Positions 1-6,641 of a DNA stretch of 6,641 nucleotides are shown here, piece by piece. This stretch comes from Candidatus Saccharimonadota bacterium (GTDB lineage: Bacteria; Pseudomonadota; Gammaproteobacteria; Enterobacterales; Enterobacteriaceae), in contig NZ_CP135010.1 of NCBI RefSeq assembly GCF_039383305.1, positions 1 to 6,641 of the forward strand, given 5' to 3'. Position 1 is the first letter of the stretch. Each line of letters begins with the position of its first letter. Position numbers and translations under genes: made by a program. A model generated the notes under the pieces. The model did no database searches. It was given only the letters and a program-made list of their open reading frames with translations, and was not told the DNA's origin.

Positions 1-112
1 CTTTTTCTTCTTTTTTGTTTTTTCTTTTTCTTCTTTTTTGTTTTTTCTTTTTCTTCTTTTTTGTTTTTTCTTTTTTGTTTTTTCTTTTTTCTTTTTTGTT
101 TTTTCTTTTTTT
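1..112. repeat. 23-bp pyrimidine-rich tandem repeat, G-variant: CTTTTTCTTCTTTTTTGTTTTTT, 3 perfect copies (1-23, 24-46, 47-69), then truncated or degenerate units (CTTTTTTGTTTTTT at 70-83 and 91-104)
   Basis: Counted directly. Only 5 purines (G at 17, 40, 63, 77, 98) occur in 112 nt of the plus strand. It is the same unit family as the array at the window end. Confidence 0.95.
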
Positions 113-120
113 AAAGTAAT

Positions 121-181
121 ATGTTATTTTGCATCTATTTCTTAAGAAGCATGTATTTTGAAAAAGTATATGCATCTATTT
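121..181. repeat. Short direct repeats GCAT(C/G)TATTT at 131-140, 149-158 and 172-181, plus related ATGTTATTTT at 121-130, surrounding a 10-bp palindrome TTCTTAAGAA (139-148)
   Basis: Read directly. TGCATCTATTT is identical at 130-140 and 171-181. The palindrome was checked by reverse complement. Confidence 0.7.
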
Positions 182-205
182 TAAAAATATATAAATTTTT
201 TTTTA

Positions 206-239
206 TTTTTTTTTTTTTTTTTAATAAAAAAAAAAAAAA
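206..239. repeat. Inverted homopolymer pair T17-AAT-A14 (pure A/T, hairpin- or melt-prone)
   Basis: T run 206-222, AAT 223-225, A run 226-239, counted from the sequence. Confidence 0.9.
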
Positions 240-240
240 T

Positions 241-350
241 GAGAAAAAATGAGAAAAAATGAGAAAAAATGAGAAAAAATGAGAAAAAATGAGAAAAAAT
301 GAGAAAAAATGAGAAAAAATGAGAAAAAATGAGAAAAAATGAGAAAAATT
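241..350. repeat. 10-bp tandem repeat GAGAAAAAAT: 10 perfect copies (241-340) plus 1 variant copy GAGAAAAATT (341-350). Each unit carries an A6 tract.
   Basis: Counted directly. The array ends 19 bp from the repA stop codon (370-372). Confidence 0.97.
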
Positions 351-369
351 TTTTATAAAAAAAAATTAA

Positions 370-1203
370 TTATAAATTTGCTAATTTTCGTAATTTAAAA
401 TATTCAATATTCACCTGTCGTTTTAACGCATCCACGCCCATTTCACAAAGTTCTTCAATCGAATAACGTTTAATTAACATATTTAAAATATAAGAACGTG
501 CTTTTGTTTCTTTTAATTTAATAATTTTAATAGCATAATTTTTTTGTTTTTTTATTACATGTTTAAATTTTCTTGCTTGAAAAGCGTAATAAATATGTTT
601 TTCTTTAGCCCGTCTTTTAGCTTCTAAACTTGTAATTTTTTTTAAACCGTTTTTCAATAATTTTTTATTGATCCAATCTAATTGTCTTTTTCGAACTTGT
701 TTGAATTTCATTTTCGAAATGTTACATAATAAAAAAAATAAAGGAGTTAAAAAAATCATTTTAGGAATATACATACCTAAAACTTTATCCCATACTTTTT
801 CACATTTTACAAAACCCATCGGTTCCATAAATTGTGTAATTAAACGAGAAGCACGAGTAATAGATTTATTACCAGCTTTTGATTTAGTGGATAATCCACA
901 TTGATCAGAAAGTTTTTCTACAGATGCCATAACTAAAGTAGAAGCAATATTAAAATAATATAACATTGCTTGCACCATAGCACGAAAAGCTCTAGCTCGA
1001 TGTTCATTTAAACGTCTTAAACGAAAAATAGTTTTACCAGTTTTTAAATCTTTTAATTGTCTTGTATAATTAATTTCATGACGTGCTACATCTATTTTTA
1101 AAGCACATTTCATAGCATATCGAATAAAAGCCGGACGTTTTTTAGAATTTAATAATGGTACAAACATTGGATATGGATTATATACATATTTTTTTCTAGA
1201 CAC
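370..1203 (-). CDS. repA: Plasmid replication initiator, IncFII-family RepA (RepA1-like), 277 aa, GTG start
   Basis: By eye, YVYNPYPMFVP and the block QCGLSTKSKAGNKSITRASRLITQF...MYIPK align with R100/R1 RepA1 as I remember it (NPNPVFTP; ECGLATESAAGKLSITRATRALTFL; CYIPT). An in-frame TAG lies 3 codons upstream, so GTG at 1203 is the only start that keeps the conserved N-terminus. AGG (1211-1209) sits 5 nt upstream of the GTG. Confidence 0.9.
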   Translation of the reverse strand: MSRKKYVYNPYPMFVPLLNSKKRPAFIRYAMKCALKIDVARHEINYTRQLKDLKTGKTIFRLRRLNEHRARAFRAMVQAMLYYFNIASTLVMASVEKLSDQCGLSTKSKAGNKSITRASRLITQFMEPMGFVKCEKVWDKVLGMYIPKMIFLTPLFFLLCNISKMKFKQVRKRQLDWINKKLLKNGLKKITSLEAKRRAKEKHIYYAFQARKFKHVIKKQKNYAIKIIKLKETKARSYILNMLIKRYSIEELCEMGVDALKRQVNIEYFKLRKLANL

Positions 1204-1225
1204 TGTAACCTATACTTAGGCGGAC
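1204..1225 (-). promoter_or_regulatory. repA translation-initiation region: GC-rich box 5'-GUCCGCCUAAG-3' (1225-1215, minus sense), 3 nt, SD AGG (1211-1209), 5 nt, GTG
   Basis: Read directly. The box is an island of G/C in almost pure A/T. It is the reverse complement of part of the E1 loop (1338-1351), with a 2-nt bulge. Confidence 0.5.
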
Positions 1226-1307
1226 AAAAATAAAAAATAATTAGTAATACATATATTTTAAAAGAAAAAACTTTCTTAAAAAATATTAACATAAATTTCA
1301 AAAAAAA

Positions 1308-1372
1308 ATTTATATTTAAAAAACCAAATTTGTATCGGTCCGCCCCTAAAGTGGCAAATCTGATATTTTTTA
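1308..1372. promoter_or_regulatory. Element E1: ATTTATATTTAAA 13-mer, then a hairpin (arms 1325-1332 / 1355-1362, 7 of 8 pairs, 22-nt loop TATCGGTCCGCCCCTAAAGTGG). It is flanked by A6 (1318-1323) and T6 (1366-1371), so it looks terminator-like on both strands.
   Basis: Arms CAAATTTG and CAAATCTG were checked for complementarity. The loop is the only G/C-rich stretch in the 321-bp leuA-repA spacer. E1 is homologous to E2 at 3244-3321. It could act as the leuA terminator, as a repA leader structure, and/or as an antisense-RNA hairpin. Confidence 0.55.
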
Positions 1373-1524
1373 TGCACTTGAAAAAATTTCAAATCTAATT
1401 ATTTTATAAAAAGAATAAAATGAAAAACTTAAATATAAAAATTTATATTTTTAAAATTTTCTTAAAAAATATTTTAATTTTTAATAATAATAATATATCA
1501 TATTCTCTATTAAAAATATAATTT

Positions 1525-3072
1525 TTATTTATTTAATTTTCCTAATTGTTTACCTACTTGGCAAGATTTCCAAATATCATTAAAAACATTAATCAAAGCT
1601 TGAGCTGAAGCTTCAATAATATCAGTAGCTAACCCAATTCCATGAAAATTACGAGTCTTATATTTTACAACAATATCTACTTTACCTAATGCGTCTTTAC
1701 CTTCTCCATTAGCTTCTAAATGAAACTTTTTTAAAATTATTGAATATAATGTAGCTTTATTTAAAGCGTGATATAAAGCATCTACAGGTCCATTAGAAGT
1801 AGTAGATTTTTGGATATTAATTTGTGTACCACATAATAAAACAATTGAAGCCGTGGCTAAACCTGATAATTTAGATTCAATATGAAAATATTCTAATTTA
1901 AAATATTCTTTTTTAACTTGTTGTTGATTAATAAAAGCTAAAGCTTCTAAATCATAATCAAAAATTTGTCCTTTTTTATCTGCTAATTTTAAAAAATCAA
2001 TATATAAAATATCTAAATTGTAATCATGTTCTAAATATCCCATTTCTTTCATACGATATTTAATAGCTGCTCGACCTGATCTAGAAGTTAAATTTAATTG
2101 ACTATTTTTTACACCAATTTTAATCGGATTTAAAATTTCATAATTTTCTCTATTCTTTAAAACACCATCTTGATGAATTCCAGAAGAATGTGAAAATGCA
2201 TTTTTTCCTACAATAGATTTATTAATAGCTATAGGAGTATTACATAAATGACTAATTATTTTACTAGTTCTATAAATTTCTTTATGTTTTATTTGAGTCA
2301 TTACACCTAATCTATTTTTATGTATTTCTAATGCCATAATAATTTCTTCTAAAGCAGTATTCCCAGCTCTTTCCCCTAAACCATTAATTGTACCTTCAAT
2401 TTGACGAGCCCCCGCTTCAATTGCGCTAATAGAATTTCCAACAGCCATACCCAAATCATTATGACAATGTACCGAAATGATAGATTTATGAATATTAGGA
2501 ACTTTTTCAAATAATGTCTGAATAATATTTTTAAACTGAGTAGGTATAGTATACCCTACTGTATCTGGAATATTAATAGTATTTGCTCCAGCTTGAATTG
2601 CTTTTTCTACAATATAACATAAATTATTTAATGAAGTACGTCCAGCATCTTCGCAAGAAAATTCTATATCATTTGTATATTTTTTAGCATATTTGATAGA
2701 ATTTAGCATCATCTCTACAATTTCTGAAAAACTTTTTTTTAATTTAGATTGTATATGTAATGCAGATGTTCCTAAAAACAAATGTATCCTAAAATTTAAA
2801 GATTTTTTCATAGCTTTAGCTGCTATATCAATATCACCTTTTAAACAACGAGCTAAACTACAAATTTTACTATCTTTAATCTCTTTTGCAATCATTTTAA
2901 TAGAATTATAATCTCCTGGAGAAGATATTGGAAAACCAACTTCAATAATGTCAACTCCTAAGCGCTCTAAAGCACGTGCAATTTGTATTTTTTTATTGAT
3001 ACTTAAACTTGCTTGTAATGCTTGTTCTCCATCTCGTAAAGTCGTATCAAAAATTATAACTTTTTGATTCAT
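1525..3072 (-). CDS. leuA: 2-isopropylmalate synthase, 515 aa
   Basis: The N-terminus [24 protein letters not shown] is nearly identical to E. coli LeuA ([24 protein letters not shown], from memory). The [11 protein letters not shown] metal-site motif is present. It is full length including the C-terminal regulatory domain. AAGGG SD-like sequence lies 4 nt before the ATG. Confidence 0.97.
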
Positions 3073-3155
3073 AGTACCCTTATTATTTTATTAATTTAAA
3101 TATTTTTTATATTTTTTATAAAAATTTTAAAAATATATATTTTTTAAAGAATTTT

Positions 3156-3184
3156 ATTATATCATATTTTTTTTTTTTTGTAAG
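3156..3184 (-). promoter_or_regulatory. Candidate leuA promoter: -35 CTTACA (3184-3179), 17-bp spacer, -10 TATAAT (3161-3156)
   Basis: The -10 is perfect and the -35 matches 4 of 6, with correct spacing. It lies about 85 nt upstream of the leuA ATG. TATAAT-like hexamers are common by chance in DNA this AT-rich. Confidence 0.35.
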
Positions 3185-3213
3185 ATTTTCTATTTTTTTT
3201 TTAAAAAAAAATA

Positions 3214-3241
3214 TTGATATTTTTTTAAAATACTATATAAT
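3214..3241 (+). promoter_or_regulatory. Near-consensus sigma70-type promoter on the plus strand: TTGATA (3214-3219), 16 bp, TATAAT (3236-3241), preceded by an A9 tract (3203-3211)
   Basis: The -35 matches 5 of 6, the -10 matches 6 of 6, and the spacer is 16 bp, all counted directly. It is divergent from the candidate leuA promoter. It points at the E2 hairpin and not at any ORF. Confidence 0.5.
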
Positions 3242-3247
3242 TTATTT

Positions 3248-3320
3248 ATATTTAAATTTTTTTTAAGCCCTCAGAATTATATCAGGCCCGCCCAAGCATT
3301 GGTAATTCTGAGGGTTTTTT
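3248..3320 (+). ncRNA. Candidate small RNA of about 70-75 nt (element E2): AU-rich 5' tail, 12-bp perfect stem, 23-nt GC-rich loop, U6 tail
   Basis: The 5' end is predicted about 7 nt after the -10 at 3236-3241, and the 3' end at the T-run 3315-3320. There is no ORF. All boundaries are predicted, not observed. Confidence 0.4.
3268..3320 (+). terminator. Intrinsic-terminator-like hairpin oriented for the plus strand: CCCTCAGAATTA (3268-3279) / TAATTCTGAGGG (3303-3314), loop TATCAGGCCCGCCCAAGCATTGG, then T6
   Basis: The stem is a perfect 12-bp complement with three G:C pairs at its base. The T6 follows on the plus strand only. On the minus strand the stem is followed by CTTAAAAAAAA. Confidence 0.65.
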
Positions 3321-3357
3321 AATTTTTGTTTATTGTAAAATATTAAAAAATTTTTAA

Positions 3358-3981
3358 TTAAAATAAATTTTTTTTCAAAATTTCATATTTAGAAATTTTA
3401 TCTTTATATTTTAAAGTATTATCAATCATATCTAATCCTAATATAATAGAATTTTTTTGTATTGAATTCATAGAAAATTTTATAATTAATTTATTTAAAA
3501 AAATTTTTTGTTGTATTAAATCTATTGTACATAATAAAGTTGGATTTTTTTTTAAAATATCAAAAATTTTATTAATATAAAATTCTTTAACTTGAATTAA
3601 TATTAATCCATTATTTAAACTATTATTAAAAAAAATATCAGAAAAACTAATTGCAATTATAATTTTAAAACCAAATTCTAATAAAGCCCATACAGCATGC
3701 TCTCTAGATGAACCGCATCCAAAATTTTCTCTTACTAATAAAATATTTGAATTTTTATATATTACTTGATTTAAAATAAAATTTTTATTCTTTATTTTAC
3801 CTTTAGAATCTATAAACCTCCAATTATAAAATAAACTTTTTCCAAAACCTGTTTTTTTAATTTTTTGTAAAAATTGTTTAGGAATAATAATATCAGTATC
3901 AATATTAGAAATATTTAACGGAGTTATTATTCCATTATATTTAATTATTTTATTCATATTTTTTCTTTTTTTAAAAAACAT
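3358..3981 (-). CDS. leuD: 3-isopropylmalate dehydratase small subunit, 207 aa as drawn. An alternative start at the second Met (3957, MNKIIKYNG...) gives 199 aa and aligns better with the E. coli LeuD N-terminus.
   Basis: Motifs DTDIIIPKQFLQKI and RENFGCGSSREHAVWAL match LeuD. The ATG at 3981 lies only 3 nt after the leuC stop. Confidence 0.93.
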   Translation of the reverse strand: MFFKKRKNMNKIIKYNGIITPLNISNIDTDIIIPKQFLQKIKKTGFGKSLFYNWRFIDSKGKIKNKNFILNQVIYKNSNILLVRENFGCGSSREHAVWALLEFGFKIIIAISFSDIFFNNSLNNGLILIQVKEFYINKIFDILKKNPTLLCTIDLIQQKIFLNKLIIKFSMNSIQKNSIILGLDMIDNTLKYKDKISKYEILKKNLF

Positions 3982-3984
3982 TTT

Positions 3985-5376
3985 TTAAAATGAATATAAT
4001 TTTCCATATAATGCAATATGAGCGGCTAACCAAGGACTCATTAAATGAGTACGTCCTTTAGAACCTTGCCGCCCTTCAAAATTACGATTACTAGTAGAAG
4101 CACATCTTTGATAAGGTTTTAAATAATCATCATTCATTCCTAGACACATTGAACATCCCGGATGTCTCCATTGAAAACCTGCATTTTTAAAAATTTTATC
4201 TAATCCTTCTTTTTCAGCTTGTTTTTTTACTAATTTAGAACCAGGAACAATAATAGCTTCTAAAGTATTAGAAATTTTTTTATTTTTTACTACTGTAGCC
4301 ACAATACGTAAATCTTCTATTCTAGAATTAGTACATGAACCTATAAAAACTTTATCAAATGTTAAATTAATTAAACTTTGTCCATTTTTTAACCCCATAT
4401 ATTCTAAAGATCGTTTTATATCTTCTTGTTCAGATAGAGTAGAAAAATTTTTTAATTTAGGAATTTTTTCTGTAATAGAAATTACTTGAGAAGGATTAGT
4501 GCCCCAAGTTATTTGAGGTAATAAAGTTGTAATATCAAAACATATTTTTTGATCAAAAAAAACATTAACATCCGATTTTAAAAAATTCCATTTTTTAATT
4601 ATATCTGTCCATATATAATTTTTAGGTATAAAATTTTTATTTTTTAAATAAGAATAAGTAATATGATCAGGTGGAATTAATCCAGATTTTGCGCCCATTT
4701 CAACTGCCATATTACAAATTGTCATACGACTTTCCATACTTAGTTGTTTAATAACTGATCCATTAAATTCAATAACATAACCTACACCTTTAGAAGTACC
4801 TAAAGTACGAATTAATCCTAAAATAATATCTTTTGAAAAGATTTTTTTATTTTGTTTTCCAATAATATTAATTAACATATTTTTCATACGTTTTTGTCGT
4901 AAAGTTTGTGTAGCAAAAACATGTTCCACTTCTGAAGTTCCAATACCAAAAGATAAAGTTCCAAATGCTCCATGTGTAGAAGTGTGAGAATCACCACATA
5001 CAATTGTCATGCCAGGTAAAGTCATACCTTGTTCTGGTCCCATTACATGAACAATGCCTTGATTAGGATGAGATATATCATAACAAGGAATATTATAATC
5101 TACACAATTTTTAATTAAAGTTTCCATTTGTAAACGAGATTTTTTTTTTATTAAATTAAAATTTTGGTGTAATGTAGGTACATTATGATCCATTGTAGCA
5201 AAAGTTTTTTGAGGTTGTCGTACTATCCGATTTTTCAAACGTAAACCTTCAAAAGCTTGAGGAGAAGTTACTTCATGAATTAAATGTAAATCTATGTACA
5301 AAAGAGGTAATTCATTTACAGACTCATATACAACGTGTTTATCAAAAATTTTTTGATATAAAGTTTTTTTTTTCAT
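3985..5376 (-). CDS. leuC: 3-isopropylmalate dehydratase large subunit, 463 aa
   Basis: Aconitase-family motifs are present: [67 protein letters not shown]. It appears collinear with E. coli LeuC (466 aa, from memory), and the three Fe-S cysteines are retained. Confidence 0.97.
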
Positions 5377-6461
5377 TATAATATCTTCAATAAATTTTCA
5401 GAAATTTTAGTACCCATAGTACTTGTAGTCACAAAATTTAATCCATTAGAAAGATCTTGTGTAAAATATCCTTGTTTTAAAGTTAATAAAATAGCATTTT
5501 CAATAGCTAATGAAATATTTGTTAAATTAAAAGAATATTTAAATAACATTGCCAATGATAAGATTTGAGCAATTGGATTAGCTAAATTTTTATTTTGTAA
5601 TTCTGGAGCAGATCCACCAGCAGGTTCATATAATCCAAATTTTTTTTTATTCAAAGAAGCAGATGGTAACATACCTAAAGAACCAGTTAAAATAGCACAC
5701 TCGTCAGTTAAAATATCACCAAATAAATTAGGACATAAAATAACATCAAATTGAGAAGGATCTTTTATCAATTGTATAGCAGCATTATCTACATATAAAT
5801 GTGTTAATTGTACTTCAGGAAAATCTTTAGAAACTTTTGTAACCACTTCACGCCATAATATAGAACTTTCTAACACATTGGCTTTATCTATTGATACTAT
5901 TTTTTTTTTTCTTTTTAAAGCTTGTTTAAAAGCAAATTTAGAAATTTTTTTAATTTCATTTGTACTGTATATAGCAGTATCAAATGCGCTTATGTTTTCT
6001 GGATTTAAATTATTACGTCCTTTAGGAAGTCCAAAATAAATTCCTCCAATTAATTCACGTATAAATAAAATATCAAATCCATTTTTTATTATTTTTTCTT
6101 TTAAAGGAGATAGATTATTTAAATTTTTATATAATTTAGCAGGTCTAAGATTAATAAATAAATTAAAAAATTTTCTTAAAAATAAAAGAGAAGAAATTTC
6201 TGGTTTTTTTTCAGGTAATAAATAATTCCATTTAGGACCACCTACTGCTCCAAATAAAATTGCATCAGATTCTTGACAACCTTTTAAAGTATTTTTAGGT
6301 AATGCAGTATTATATTTATCTATAGCTTTTCCTCCAACATCAAATTCTTTAGTATATATTTTTATTTTTTTTTTTTTTTGTATAACAGAAAGAATTTTAT
6401 ATGCTTCTGTCATAATTTCTGGTCCAATACCGTCTCCAGGTAAAATTGCAATTTTATACAT
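5376..6461 (-). CDS. leuB: 3-isopropylmalate dehydrogenase, 361 aa
   Basis: Motifs [45 protein letters not shown] and [10 protein letters not shown] match LeuB. The stop TAA overlaps the leuC ATG by 1 nt (minus-sense TAATG at 5378-5374). Confidence 0.97.
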
Positions 6462-6522
6462 ATTTTAAATACTCAATTAAAATAAATTTTTATGTTTTTA
6501 AAAAAAATTTTTAAGAATTTTT

Positions 6523-6528
6523 ATTATA
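6523..6528 (-). promoter_or_regulatory. Possible -10 hexamer (TATAAT, minus sense) for leuBCD. There is no recognisable -35. The upstream DNA is the A-rich (minus-sense) repeat array.
   Basis: A perfect hexamer lies 62 nt upstream of the leuB ATG. The -35 position reads AGAAAA. This is weak evidence in AT-rich DNA. Confidence 0.3.
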
Positions 6529-6549
6529 TACTATTTTTTTCTTTTTTTT

Positions 6550-6641
6550 CTTTTTCTTCTTTTTTATTTTTTCTTTTTCTTCTTTTTTATTTTTTCTTTT
6601 TCTTCTTTTTTATTTTTTCTTTTTCTTCTTTTTTATTTTTT
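6550..6641. repeat. 23-bp pyrimidine-rich tandem repeat, A-variant: CTTTTTCTTCTTTTTTATTTTTT, 4 perfect copies (6550-6572, 6573-6595, 6596-6618, 6619-6641), preceded by T7-C-T8 (6534-6549)
   Basis: Counted directly. The last unit ends exactly at the last base of the window. The unit differs from the array at 1-69 at a single position (A versus G at unit position 17). Confidence 0.95.

Follow-up and report, generated by a model that had tools for sequence, protein, structure and literature searches.

Translational control of the replication initiator by antisense RNA and a pseudoknot is known from plasmid replicons of the IncFII superfamily. In ColIb-P9 (IncI-alpha; Rfam family PK-repZ, RF01087), a Rep protein of family PF02387 is translated from a GUG codon behind a weak Shine-Dalgarno (SD) sequence (PMC4705826). 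A hairpin about 100-150 nucleotides (nt) upstream carries the loop (U)UGGCGG, CCGCC lies directly 5' of the SD, and a small RNA with a CGCC loop competes for the loop of the hairpin (PMC4705826). The repBA/RNAI system of pMU720 (IncB) and that of IncL/M pMU604 (PK-repBA, RF01089) follow the same logic. This study concerns a DNA stretch of 6,641 nt, hereafter the window (NZ_CP135010.1, positions 1 to 6,641, forward strand), which is the leucine plasmid pLeu of Buchnera aphidicola of the aphid Nippolachnus piri, and in particular the leader of its replication initiator gene, repA. An earlier note, made from the sequence alone, had proposed that this leader holds the parts of an IncI-alpha/IncB-type pseudoknot and antisense circuit. 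On balance, the comparisons reported here favor reading it as a reduced descendant of the antisense-RNA/pseudoknot control of the IncFII superfamily, with a second hairpin, hp2, as the likely source of the regulatory RNA.

The traits listed above for ColIb-P9 recur in the window, where the counterpart of the competing small RNA is predicted, and the hexamer pair of the window, GGCGGA/UCCGCC, is identical to that of the Rfam PK-repZ consensus. Read in the mRNA (minus-strand) sense, the target hairpin SL-I (E1 in the earlier note) has a stem of CAGAUUUG with CAAAUUUG, 8 bp including one G-U, and a 22-nt loop, CCACUUUAGGGGCGGACCGAUA, that carries UUUAGGGGCGGACCGAUA / GGGGCGGAC. The loop core GGCGGAC (1344-1338) is separated by 112 nt from a box, GUCCGCC, that stands 7 nt ahead of the SD, AGG; UAAG, which follows the box, leaves a gap of 3 nt to AGG. 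The coordinates given earlier for hairpin, loop, box, 112-nt spacing, SD, GTG and T6 run were all confirmed on the sequence, and the perfect 7-bp GGCGGAC/GUCCGCC complement with its UUUA/UAAG extension is present. The remark that these are almost the only G/C clusters of the 321-nt leuA-repA spacer (15.3% G+C) was also borne out. Only the loop core and box regions contain 7-mers with at least 5 G/C, the 20-nt G+C profile peaks at 55% and 40% versus 0-15% elsewhere, and among 89 Watson-Crick complementary 7-mer pairs in the spacer the loop/box pair alone is G/C-rich (at least 4 G/C). The loop-box duplex was calculated at -17.1 kcal/mol. Folding was nested only, with constraints; in this ensemble the long-range helix of the 211-nt leader has a pair probability of ~0.39, and forcing it costs 0.5 kcal/mol (-40.5 versus -41.0 kcal/mol for the unconstrained minimum free energy (MFE) fold). 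A second, AU-only hairpin (SL-II equivalent) has the same position as the second hairpin of the Fukatsuia and Serratia leaders. Taken from the window alone, the case for loop-box pairing is suggestive, not decisive.

The claim that RepA belongs to the same family as the Rep proteins of ColIb-P9-type replicons was upheld: the RepA cluster of the window and all 88 homologues are assigned to PF02387 (IncFII_repA), and a tblastn search with the window RepA matched thousands of IncFII-family repA genes. The nearest RepA outside Buchnera is that of a Fukatsuia symbiotica plasmid (NZ_CP021661.1), with 58% identity to the RepA of the window and 58-65% to Buchnera proteins; three copies of it occur within this one record. 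A Hamiltonella RepA (CP001278.1), whose gene begins at base 1 of the record, is 57% identical to that of the window. Both proteins are nearer to Buchnera than to any free-living enterobacterial plasmid.

The leaders can be aligned as well. In the Fukatsuia plasmid, a CopB-like gene is followed by a 257-nt leader that encodes a leader peptide of 18-19 amino acids and has GCCCGCCAUAAGUGUAGGGUGGGGUGACUAGA at its 3' end, in the same place as UGUCCGCCUAAGUAUAGGUUACAGUGUCUAGA in the window. Its hairpin loop CUUUAGCGGGUUAG resembles CUUUAGGGGCGGACCG of the window, and the box of the window aligns with Fukatsuia CCCGCCAUAAG and with UCCGCCAU, the 3' end of the Rfam PK-repZ consensus. The Fukatsuia leader has weak Rfam matches to CopA (29 bits, antisense strand) and PK-repZ (25 bits, sense); the PK-repZ consensus loop UUGGCGGAA and the consensus 3' end align to precisely its loop and box. 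Above the Rfam gathering threshold, CopA was found in plasmids of Serratia entomophila, S. marcescens and S. symbiotica (69-88 bits), and PK-repBA in Sodalis pSG1 (51.4 bits). A custom covariance model, built from eight non-Buchnera rep leaders only, scored 53.5 bits on an Enterobacter control and gave full-length, weak matches to two Mindarus repA leaders (15.2 and 12.9 bits, E 0.08 and 0.28). From these alignments, the repA leader is almost certainly homologous to the rep leaders of symbiont and enterobacterial plasmids. The relatives are like R1 and R100 (IncFII; CopA, RF00042) in their CopB-like gene, tap-like peptide and CopA matches, and the two-hairpin leader layout is shared; a RepB-RCR_reg/CopB-like gene (PF10723) is present in Fukatsuia and three metagenomic relatives. 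Unlike R1/R100, the window has no copB-type gene or tap peptide in its repA-upstream region (leuA ends 321 nt upstream; list of open reading frames), and no CopA match was found in 1100-1600 or 3190-3345 (Rfam, E <= 10). To our knowledge, R1 uses no activator pseudoknot.

The pairing of loop and box was followed across 40 rep leaders taken from Buchnera plasmids and their relatives, 17 of which had a recognisable leader. The motif UAAG-N3-AGG-N3-6-GUG occurs in all 17, and in 13, the window among them, the best partner of the pre-SD box within the 185 nt upstream is the loop of the hairpin at the SL-I position. This hairpin is found in 13 lineages with differing stem sequences; hairpins with a GGCGG-type loop stand there, on quite different stems, in Mindarus, Greenidea, Mollitrichosiphum and the non-Buchnera relatives. 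SL-I is 94% identical between the window and Tuberolachnus, and the spacer upstream of it is full of indels. Complementarity is kept in about 12 lineages, including Lachninae, Mindarinae, Greenideinae, Fukatsuia, Sodalis and Erwinia haradaeae (Table 1), with double changes that preserve pairing (GACGG/CCGUC, GGCAGA/UCUGCC and GGUCGG/CCGACC). Cognate loop-box duplexes of 11 lineages sum to -140.9 kcal/mol, versus -119.5 +/- 6.4 kcal/mol when permuted (permutation p = 0.0008). The covariation between loop and pre-SD box that the earlier note had suggested looking for in related repA leaders is seen both as compensatory changes and as a preference for cognate pairs. In an anchored alignment, 77% of cells pair, versus 25-56% with the partner slid by 1-3 columns; Sodalis scored badly there from column misplacement, and its GGUCGG/CCGACC was read directly. 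A MAFFT alignment of the hairpin and box segments was dropped because it misaligned the loop cores and ignored a 1-nt deletion before UAAG in Buchnera. G-U pairs in the mRNA sense speak for pairing of RNA on that strand rather than of DNA. No G/C loop-box pairing was found in the CopA-type leaders of Serratia, nothing was found in a scan of metagenome contigs for the box-SD-start pattern, and a scan of genome contigs with a RepA alignment yielded two loci only. It is quite likely, on this comparative evidence, that loop-box pairing is functional in the window plasmid. The same leader design, with an intact leader peptide, was observed at about 880-1000 in pBioThi, the biotin/thiamine plasmid of Erwinia haradaeae, a co-symbiont of Cinara.

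Table 1. Complementary loop and box segments (mRNA sense), read directly from the sequences
Lineage	Loop	Box	Remarks
Window	GGCGGAC	GUCCGCC	plus UUUA / UAAG
Tuberolachnus	GGGCGG	CCGCCU	plus UUCU / AGAA
Three Mindarus	AAUUUGGGCGG	CCGCCUAAGUU	11 contiguous pairs
Greenidea	GGCGG	CCGCC	
Mollitrichosiphum	GACGG	CCGUC	
Fukatsuia	GCGGG	CCCGC	
lgnP0016	GGCGGAU	GUCCGCU	close Fukatsuia relative
jgiP0061	GGC-C-GGCG	CGCC-U-GCC	matched insertions
lgnP0064	GGCGG	CCGCC	loop identical to ColIb-P9
Sodalis	GGUCGG	CCGACC	
Erwinia haradaeae	GGCAGA	UCUGCC	

Alternatively, SL-I may be a terminator or insulator between leuA and repA, or the G/C boxes may be protein sites at the DNA level, with the complementarity incidental. 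GUUUUUU (1324-1318) follows the hairpin in the mRNA sense, T6 follows it in the antisense direction, and the hairpin lies about 160 nt past the leuA stop. However, the 8-bp stem is mostly A-U and encloses a 22-nt loop, a terminator scan reports nothing here, Mindarus, Greenidea and Fukatsuia lack the sense U-run, and the stretch of leader upstream of SL-I has homologues in the transcribed leaders of Mindarus and Fukatsuia. The position of the box beside the SD, the cognate-specific complementarity and the G-U pairs, which can form only in the mRNA sense, would also go unexplained, and this alternative appears highly improbable.

A second copy of the hairpin was recovered with the custom model of non-Buchnera leaders, which first struck, unexpectedly, the leuD-leuA spacer of Tuberolachnus. 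In the window, its only significant match (3318-3227, minus strand, 23.4 bits, E ~5e-5, filters off) is in the leuD-leuA spacer too, 1.9 kb from the repA leader. The element, hp2, has as its best Rfam matches by E value PK-repBA (18.8 bits, E 0.032) and PK-repZ (18.3 bits), both sub-threshold (thresholds 45 and 44). In the sense orientation, its perfect 12-bp stem (CCCUCAGAAUUA/UAAUUCUGAGGG, 3314-3303 / 3279-3268) encloses a 23-nt loop, CCAAUGCUUGGGCGGGCCUGAUA, carrying UUGGGCGGG; the loop of the plus-strand RNA carries CCCGCCCAAG. The plus strand folds at -24.4 kcal/mol (z = -4.7), and the minus strand has z = -3.2. Between Nippolachnus and Tuberolachnus, hp2 is 100% identical, and it occurs also in Greenidea and in both Mindarus plasmids that were examined whole, with the covarying stems CCCCUCAAAGUUAU, CCCUUCAGAGUUAU and CCCCUUUAAAAUUAU.

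On the plus strand, hp2 is preceded by a promoter-like site and followed by a T-run (Table 2). The promoter has identical hexamers and spacing in Tuberolachnus; it reads TTGATT-16-TATTAT with a TG extension in Mindarus japonicus, where it is the sole promoter-like site in the spacer, and TTGACT-17-TATTAT in Greenidea (read by eye). All five lineages have a T-rich tail after the stem (T10 in Tuberolachnus, T8 in Mindarus keteleerifoliae, T5/T6 in M. japonicus, T4 in Greenidea). Four aphid genera from three subfamilies share the promoter and terminator motifs; the terminator scanner, with a loop limit of 8 nt, left hp2 unreported because the loop exceeds this limit. The order of promoter, 7-30-nt tail, stem-loop and T-run predicts an RNA of ~75 nt (~3248-3320), which resembles Inc RNA and RNAI in size and layout.

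The predicted hp2 RNA was compared with 1316 segments of 70 nt on both strands of the whole plasmid. Its best target besides its own locus was the repA leader at 1381-1312 (-43.6 kcal/mol versus a mean of -15.1, standard deviation 8.3). The pairing is colinear: the U-tail pairs with A6 (1366-1371), the loop follows, and the 5' tail pairs with UUUAAAUAU, which directly adjoins SL-I on its 3' side. SL-I pairs best with the hp2 RNA of its own lineage in Mindarus (-42 to -44 versus -25 to -30 kcal/mol for foreign RNAs), Greenidea (-29.3 versus -23.5 kcal/mol) and Nippolachnus (-26.5 versus -24.3 and -13.7 kcal/mol), and the loops of SL-I and hp2 share lineage-specific residues. No plasmid examined whole had a separate hp2 unless its lineage had also retained SL-I and the box. 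The hp2 of Greenidea is flanked by the full repA on one side and by a fragment of repA on the other; in Mollitrichosiphum, SL-I and the box are retained, and a single hairpin, with the stem of Greenidea hp2, precedes the full repA. From this arrangement, hp2 is best interpreted as an SL-I that belonged to a second copy of rep, of which Lachninae and Mindarinae would keep only the antisense-RNA gene. Incomplete secondary replicons of IncF plasmids, such as RepFIC remnants, still express an incompatibility RNA that cross-reacts with the leader of the working replicon. Like these, hp2 would be the remnant of a duplicated replicon that keeps only the antisense-RNA gene; unlike them, it may be the main or only source of the regulator, and its site is a spacer within a biosynthetic operon (leuD-leuA), on the plasmid of an obligate endosymbiont. 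In pea-aphid pLeu, a 97-nt stem-loop ahead of leuA was considered as an hp2 homologue and rejected: it forms a perfect palindrome of 45 bp around a 3-nt loop and has no G/C loop. The palindrome in that plasmid (2894-2986, between repA2 and leuA, -57 kcal/mol, z = -15) is evidently the 97-nt stem-loop of PMC3229713.

The elements may also be functionless: hairpin, box and hp2 could be ancestral leftovers that have not yet decayed, with repA expressed constitutively. In favor of this, most Buchnera lineages retain their plasmids with none of these elements left, the leader peptide and the CopB-like gene have already disappeared, and the AU stem of SL-I is weak. However, in three aphid subfamilies a spacer of 15% G+C has retained G/C-rich 7-11-mers amid neighbors saturated with changes and indels. 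Double substitutions that keep the pairing are found in Mollitrichosiphum, in lgnP0016 versus Fukatsuia and in Erwinia haradaeae, and the identity of hp2 between Nippolachnus and Tuberolachnus, the covariation of its stems in Mindarus and Greenidea and its conserved promoter hexamers weigh against a relic, which we consider improbable.

The regulatory RNA could instead be encoded in cis, as a plus-strand antisense RNA that crosses SL-I and ends at the T6 run, with hp2 having another role, for example in the processing or stability of the leuD-leuA transcript. This is the arrangement of all characterised relatives (CopA antisense to the Serratia leaders; PMC4705826). The plus-strand complement of SL-I folds at -9.3 kcal/mol (z = -1.8) and is followed by T6. 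In the relatives, the antisense promoter consists of a -10 TATACT and a -35 TTGAAT or TTGACC, which correspond on the opposite strand to the leader-peptide SD region and to AUUCAA or GGUCAA codons; in the window, as read from the sequence, the -10 equivalent TATATT is kept at 1252-1257 and the -35 has decayed. No plus-strand promoter-like site (at least 9/12) was found downstream of SL-I in the window (1204-1325), Tuberolachnus or Mindarus, whereas hp2 combines a promoter close to consensus with a strong terminator in all lineages that keep SL-I, apart from Mollitrichosiphum with its single hairpin. For the plus-strand RNA ending at T6 that the earlier note expected, the T-run and a weak terminator-like hairpin thus stand, and a promoter-like site was not found. 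An antisense RNA encoded in cis as the repressor appears unlikely, hp2 is a much better candidate antisense-RNA gene, and its RNA may act on SL-I, a step that we put forward tentatively. TTGAAA-16-AAAAAT (1392-1365), a possible repA promoter that would cut into SL-I, was judged unlikely because its TTGAAA lies in a small hairpin that, by eye, looks homologous to one in the transcribed Mindarus leader.

What was computed is the homology of the leader, the conserved and covarying pairing, the motifs for promoter and terminator, and the complementarity of hp2 to SL-I; from these we infer every functional step of the following scheme, the transcription of either small RNA included. AGG and GUG would form a poor initiation site for repA. 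The GUCCGCC box could pair locally with the SD (CCUA/UAGG) or, over 112 nt, with the SL-I loop GGCGGAC; the long-range helix would free and organise the initiation site, and repA would be translated. A small RNA with a CCCGCCC loop would bind the SL-I loop, which would prevent the long-range helix, lower RepA synthesis and provide feedback on copy number. This RNA would act in trans and most probably come from hp2 (plus strand, ~3248-3320), a locus that appears to be a remnant of the leader of a lost second rep copy; a cis-antisense transcript ending at T6 (1366-1371), which lacks a recognisable promoter, may be a second source. The leader peptide, which in the classical systems is essential and provides translational coupling, has been lost, and the AU-rich leader presumably opens without a ribosome.

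The loss of the leader peptide is one of two departures from the IncI-alpha/IncB model; the other is that no promoter was detected for an RNA antisense to the hairpin. All nine of the nine non-Buchnera relatives have an intact leader peptide of 18-19 codons, with AUG at -49/-46, GGAG ahead of it and a stop that overlaps the rep start. In the window, AUG-UAU-UAC-UAA at 1252-1241 is probably a remnant of it; Tuberolachnus has AUG-UUU-UAC-UAA and Mindarus none. The mini reading frame AUG-UAU-UAC-UAA (Tuberolachnus ~5465-5476) has no SD ahead. Unlike ColIb-P9, therefore, the window has no repY-type leader peptide, and it differs further in its weak initiation-site structure, its AU-rich stems, the absence of an evident cis-antisense promoter and the position of its candidate repressor at a paralogous hairpin 1.9 kb away; the repB-type coupling of pMU720 and pMU604 is likewise missing. 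The parts list of the earlier note holds for the pseudoknot parts, which are homologous and conserved, and fails for the leader-peptide frame (repY/repB/RLP), which defines the IncI-alpha/IncB circuit and is gone here. Its control logic stands in a similar way: the pseudoknot parts are homologous and appear to be under selection, the leader peptide is lost and the repressor is probably encoded elsewhere, in hp2.

A further variant holds that control was rewired, with the leader peptide gone, the target in the repA leader, the repressor supplied in trans from the hp2 of the lost replicon, and transcription of the leucine genes coupled to replication. As hp2 lies within the leuD-leuA spacer, sense read-through from these genes would form a perfect complement to the repressor, and could collide with its transcription or titrate the RNA. 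We regard this variant as a whole as improbable. A promoter-like site (CTTACA-17-TATAAT, TG extension, 10/12; 3184-3156, minus strand) was observed about 85 nt upstream of the leuA start. This suggests a separate promoter for leuA, located downstream of hp2; the sense RNA of hp2 would then come only from leuBCD read-through.

Several observations weigh against the reading of the leader as reduced antisense-RNA/pseudoknot control. Within the window, the drawn SL-I is not the thermodynamic favorite (stem probability ~0.11); the 45-nt SL-I segment favors two small helices (-9.1 kcal/mol, z = -1.1) that hide part of GGCGGAC, and about 5% of dinucleotide-shuffled boxes pair as well with the upstream leader. 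The box-shuffle test is itself weak, because shuffled G/C boxes still pair with the G/C loop; it was nonsignificant for several other leaders and was not relied on. Since both the complementarity in the single sequence and the hairpin are marginal, the weight of the evidence rests on the comparative data, and these have limits of their own: the column-shuffle control was only modestly exceeded (65/2000 shuffles reach the observed value), and the core five pairs are nearly invariant, so that same-column covariation rests on few lineages. The repA leader of the window matched no Rfam family (E <= 10) other than unrelated ones at chance level, and the custom leader model gave no match on it (filters off); for the PK-repZ covariance model, the AU-rich stems account for this. 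The leader-peptide frame that ends at UAG 1198-1196 has no start codon in the window and is open only back to -37. The local hairpin that would mask the SD is weak (GCCUA with UAGGU, -5.2 kcal/mol, z = -0.9), where Fukatsuia and Sodalis have 6-bp G/C versions, and this makes a relief role of the long-range helix hard to place. As for hp2, promoter motifs in ~90% A+T DNA are weak evidence alone, and the likeness of hp2 and SL-I within lineages could result from gene conversion, not from selection for pairing.

The control is also dispensable, being lost in most Buchnera lineages. Both boxes have been lost in Cinara, repA1 and repA2 of Aphidinae, Hormaphidinae, Neophyllaphis, Thelaxes, Kurisakia, Baizongia and Pemphigus; most lineages, Thelaxinae and Eriosomatinae among them, replicate their plasmids without the boxes. 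In five Cinara lineages, the leuA-repA spacer (1551-1600 in Cinara cedri) is reduced to 48-175 nt, hairpin, box and hp2 are missing, and three of the five have AUG as the repA start codon; the smallest Buchnera genomes seem to have lost the control region altogether. In Aphidinae, repA2 keeps the leader end (UAAGUGUAUU..GUG(U/C)CUAGA, GUG start) without the G/C box and hairpin, and repA1 has lost the leader end too and starts with AUG.

The plasmid NZ_CP135007.1 is 99.9% identical to the window over 99% of the length, with a RepA that is 99.6% identical. All genes are on the minus strand: leuB, leuC, leuD (3358-3981), leuA (1525-3072) and repA (Table 2). A 23-nt T-rich unit, CTTTTTCTTCTTTTTTGTTTTTT, is repeated in 5 copies at 1-111 and 4.6 copies at 6537-6641, and this array probably crosses the circular junction of the plasmid. 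A second unit, AAAAAATGAG, occurs in 11.5 perfect tandem copies at 234-348, directly downstream of the repA stop. In related plasmids, the origin has been placed between repA and leuB (PMC4898801); both arrays lie between these genes and may be iteron-like or origin repeats.

Table 2. Features of the repA leader and of the hp2 region in the window
Feature	Positions	Strand	Remarks
repA	370..1203	-	277 codons, GUG start; replication initiator, IncFII_repA family; from open reading frame list, translation and Pfam
Weak Shine-Dalgarno AGG	1209..1211	-	5 nt ahead of GUG 1203-1201; read from sequence
Pre-SD box GUCCGCC (1225-1219) and UAAG (1218-1215)	1215..1225	-	complementary to loop; putative 3' partner of long-range (pseudoknot-type) helix
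Probable leader-peptide remnant AUG-UAU-UAC-UAA	1241..1252	-	where relatives begin the leader peptide
Second leader hairpin (SL-II equivalent)	1288..1316	-	AU-only; in MFE and centroid folds of leader
Target hairpin SL-I (E1)	1325..1362	-	stems 1362-1355 / 1332-1325, loop 1354-1333
T6 run after SL-I complement	1366..1371	+	possible 3' end of cis-antisense RNA; homologous to hp2 terminator T-run
hp2 promoter TTGATA-16-TATAAT	3214..3241	+	sigma-70-type, 11/12, best site in spacer; predicted start near 3248
hp2, SL-I paralogue	3268..3314	+	12-bp stem, 23-nt loop; body of candidate ~75-nt RNA
hp2 terminator T-run	3315..3320	+	completes intrinsic terminator; read from sequence

In the Tuberolachnus genome paper, 'an inverted repeat partially overlapping the 5' of repA1' was described as a putative regulatory element, with no mechanism (PMC4898801). 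A re-annotation of pea-aphid pLeu lists promoters, terminators and stem-loops and no antisense control, and the copy number of this plasmid responds to leucine demand (PMC3229713). In agreement with the earlier note, which knew of no such control in endosymbiont leucine plasmids, no description of antisense or pseudoknot control for Buchnera plasmids was found in the searchable full-text literature.

In sum, three RNA elements of pLeu that can be pinpointed and mutated, namely a loop, a box and the candidate gene of a ~75-nt RNA, emerge as possible determinants of how much RepA is made. Buchnera amplifies its leucine-biosynthesis genes on this plasmid, and how their dosage is set with almost all regulators lost is an old question. 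The similarity of RepA also links the repA1 replicon of Buchnera with plasmids carried by facultative symbionts of aphids, which bears on the origin of the replicon or its exchange among aphid symbionts. The elements are kept in Lachninae (Tuberolachnini), Mindarinae and Greenideinae and lost in Cinara, Aphidinae, Hormaphidinae and more, and the loss of control can be set against copy number or the presence of two rep genes. If the reading is true, an obligate endosymbiont would still be regulating its plasmid by RNA; with these elements, the retention of antisense-RNA regulation in obligate endosymbionts becomes testable.

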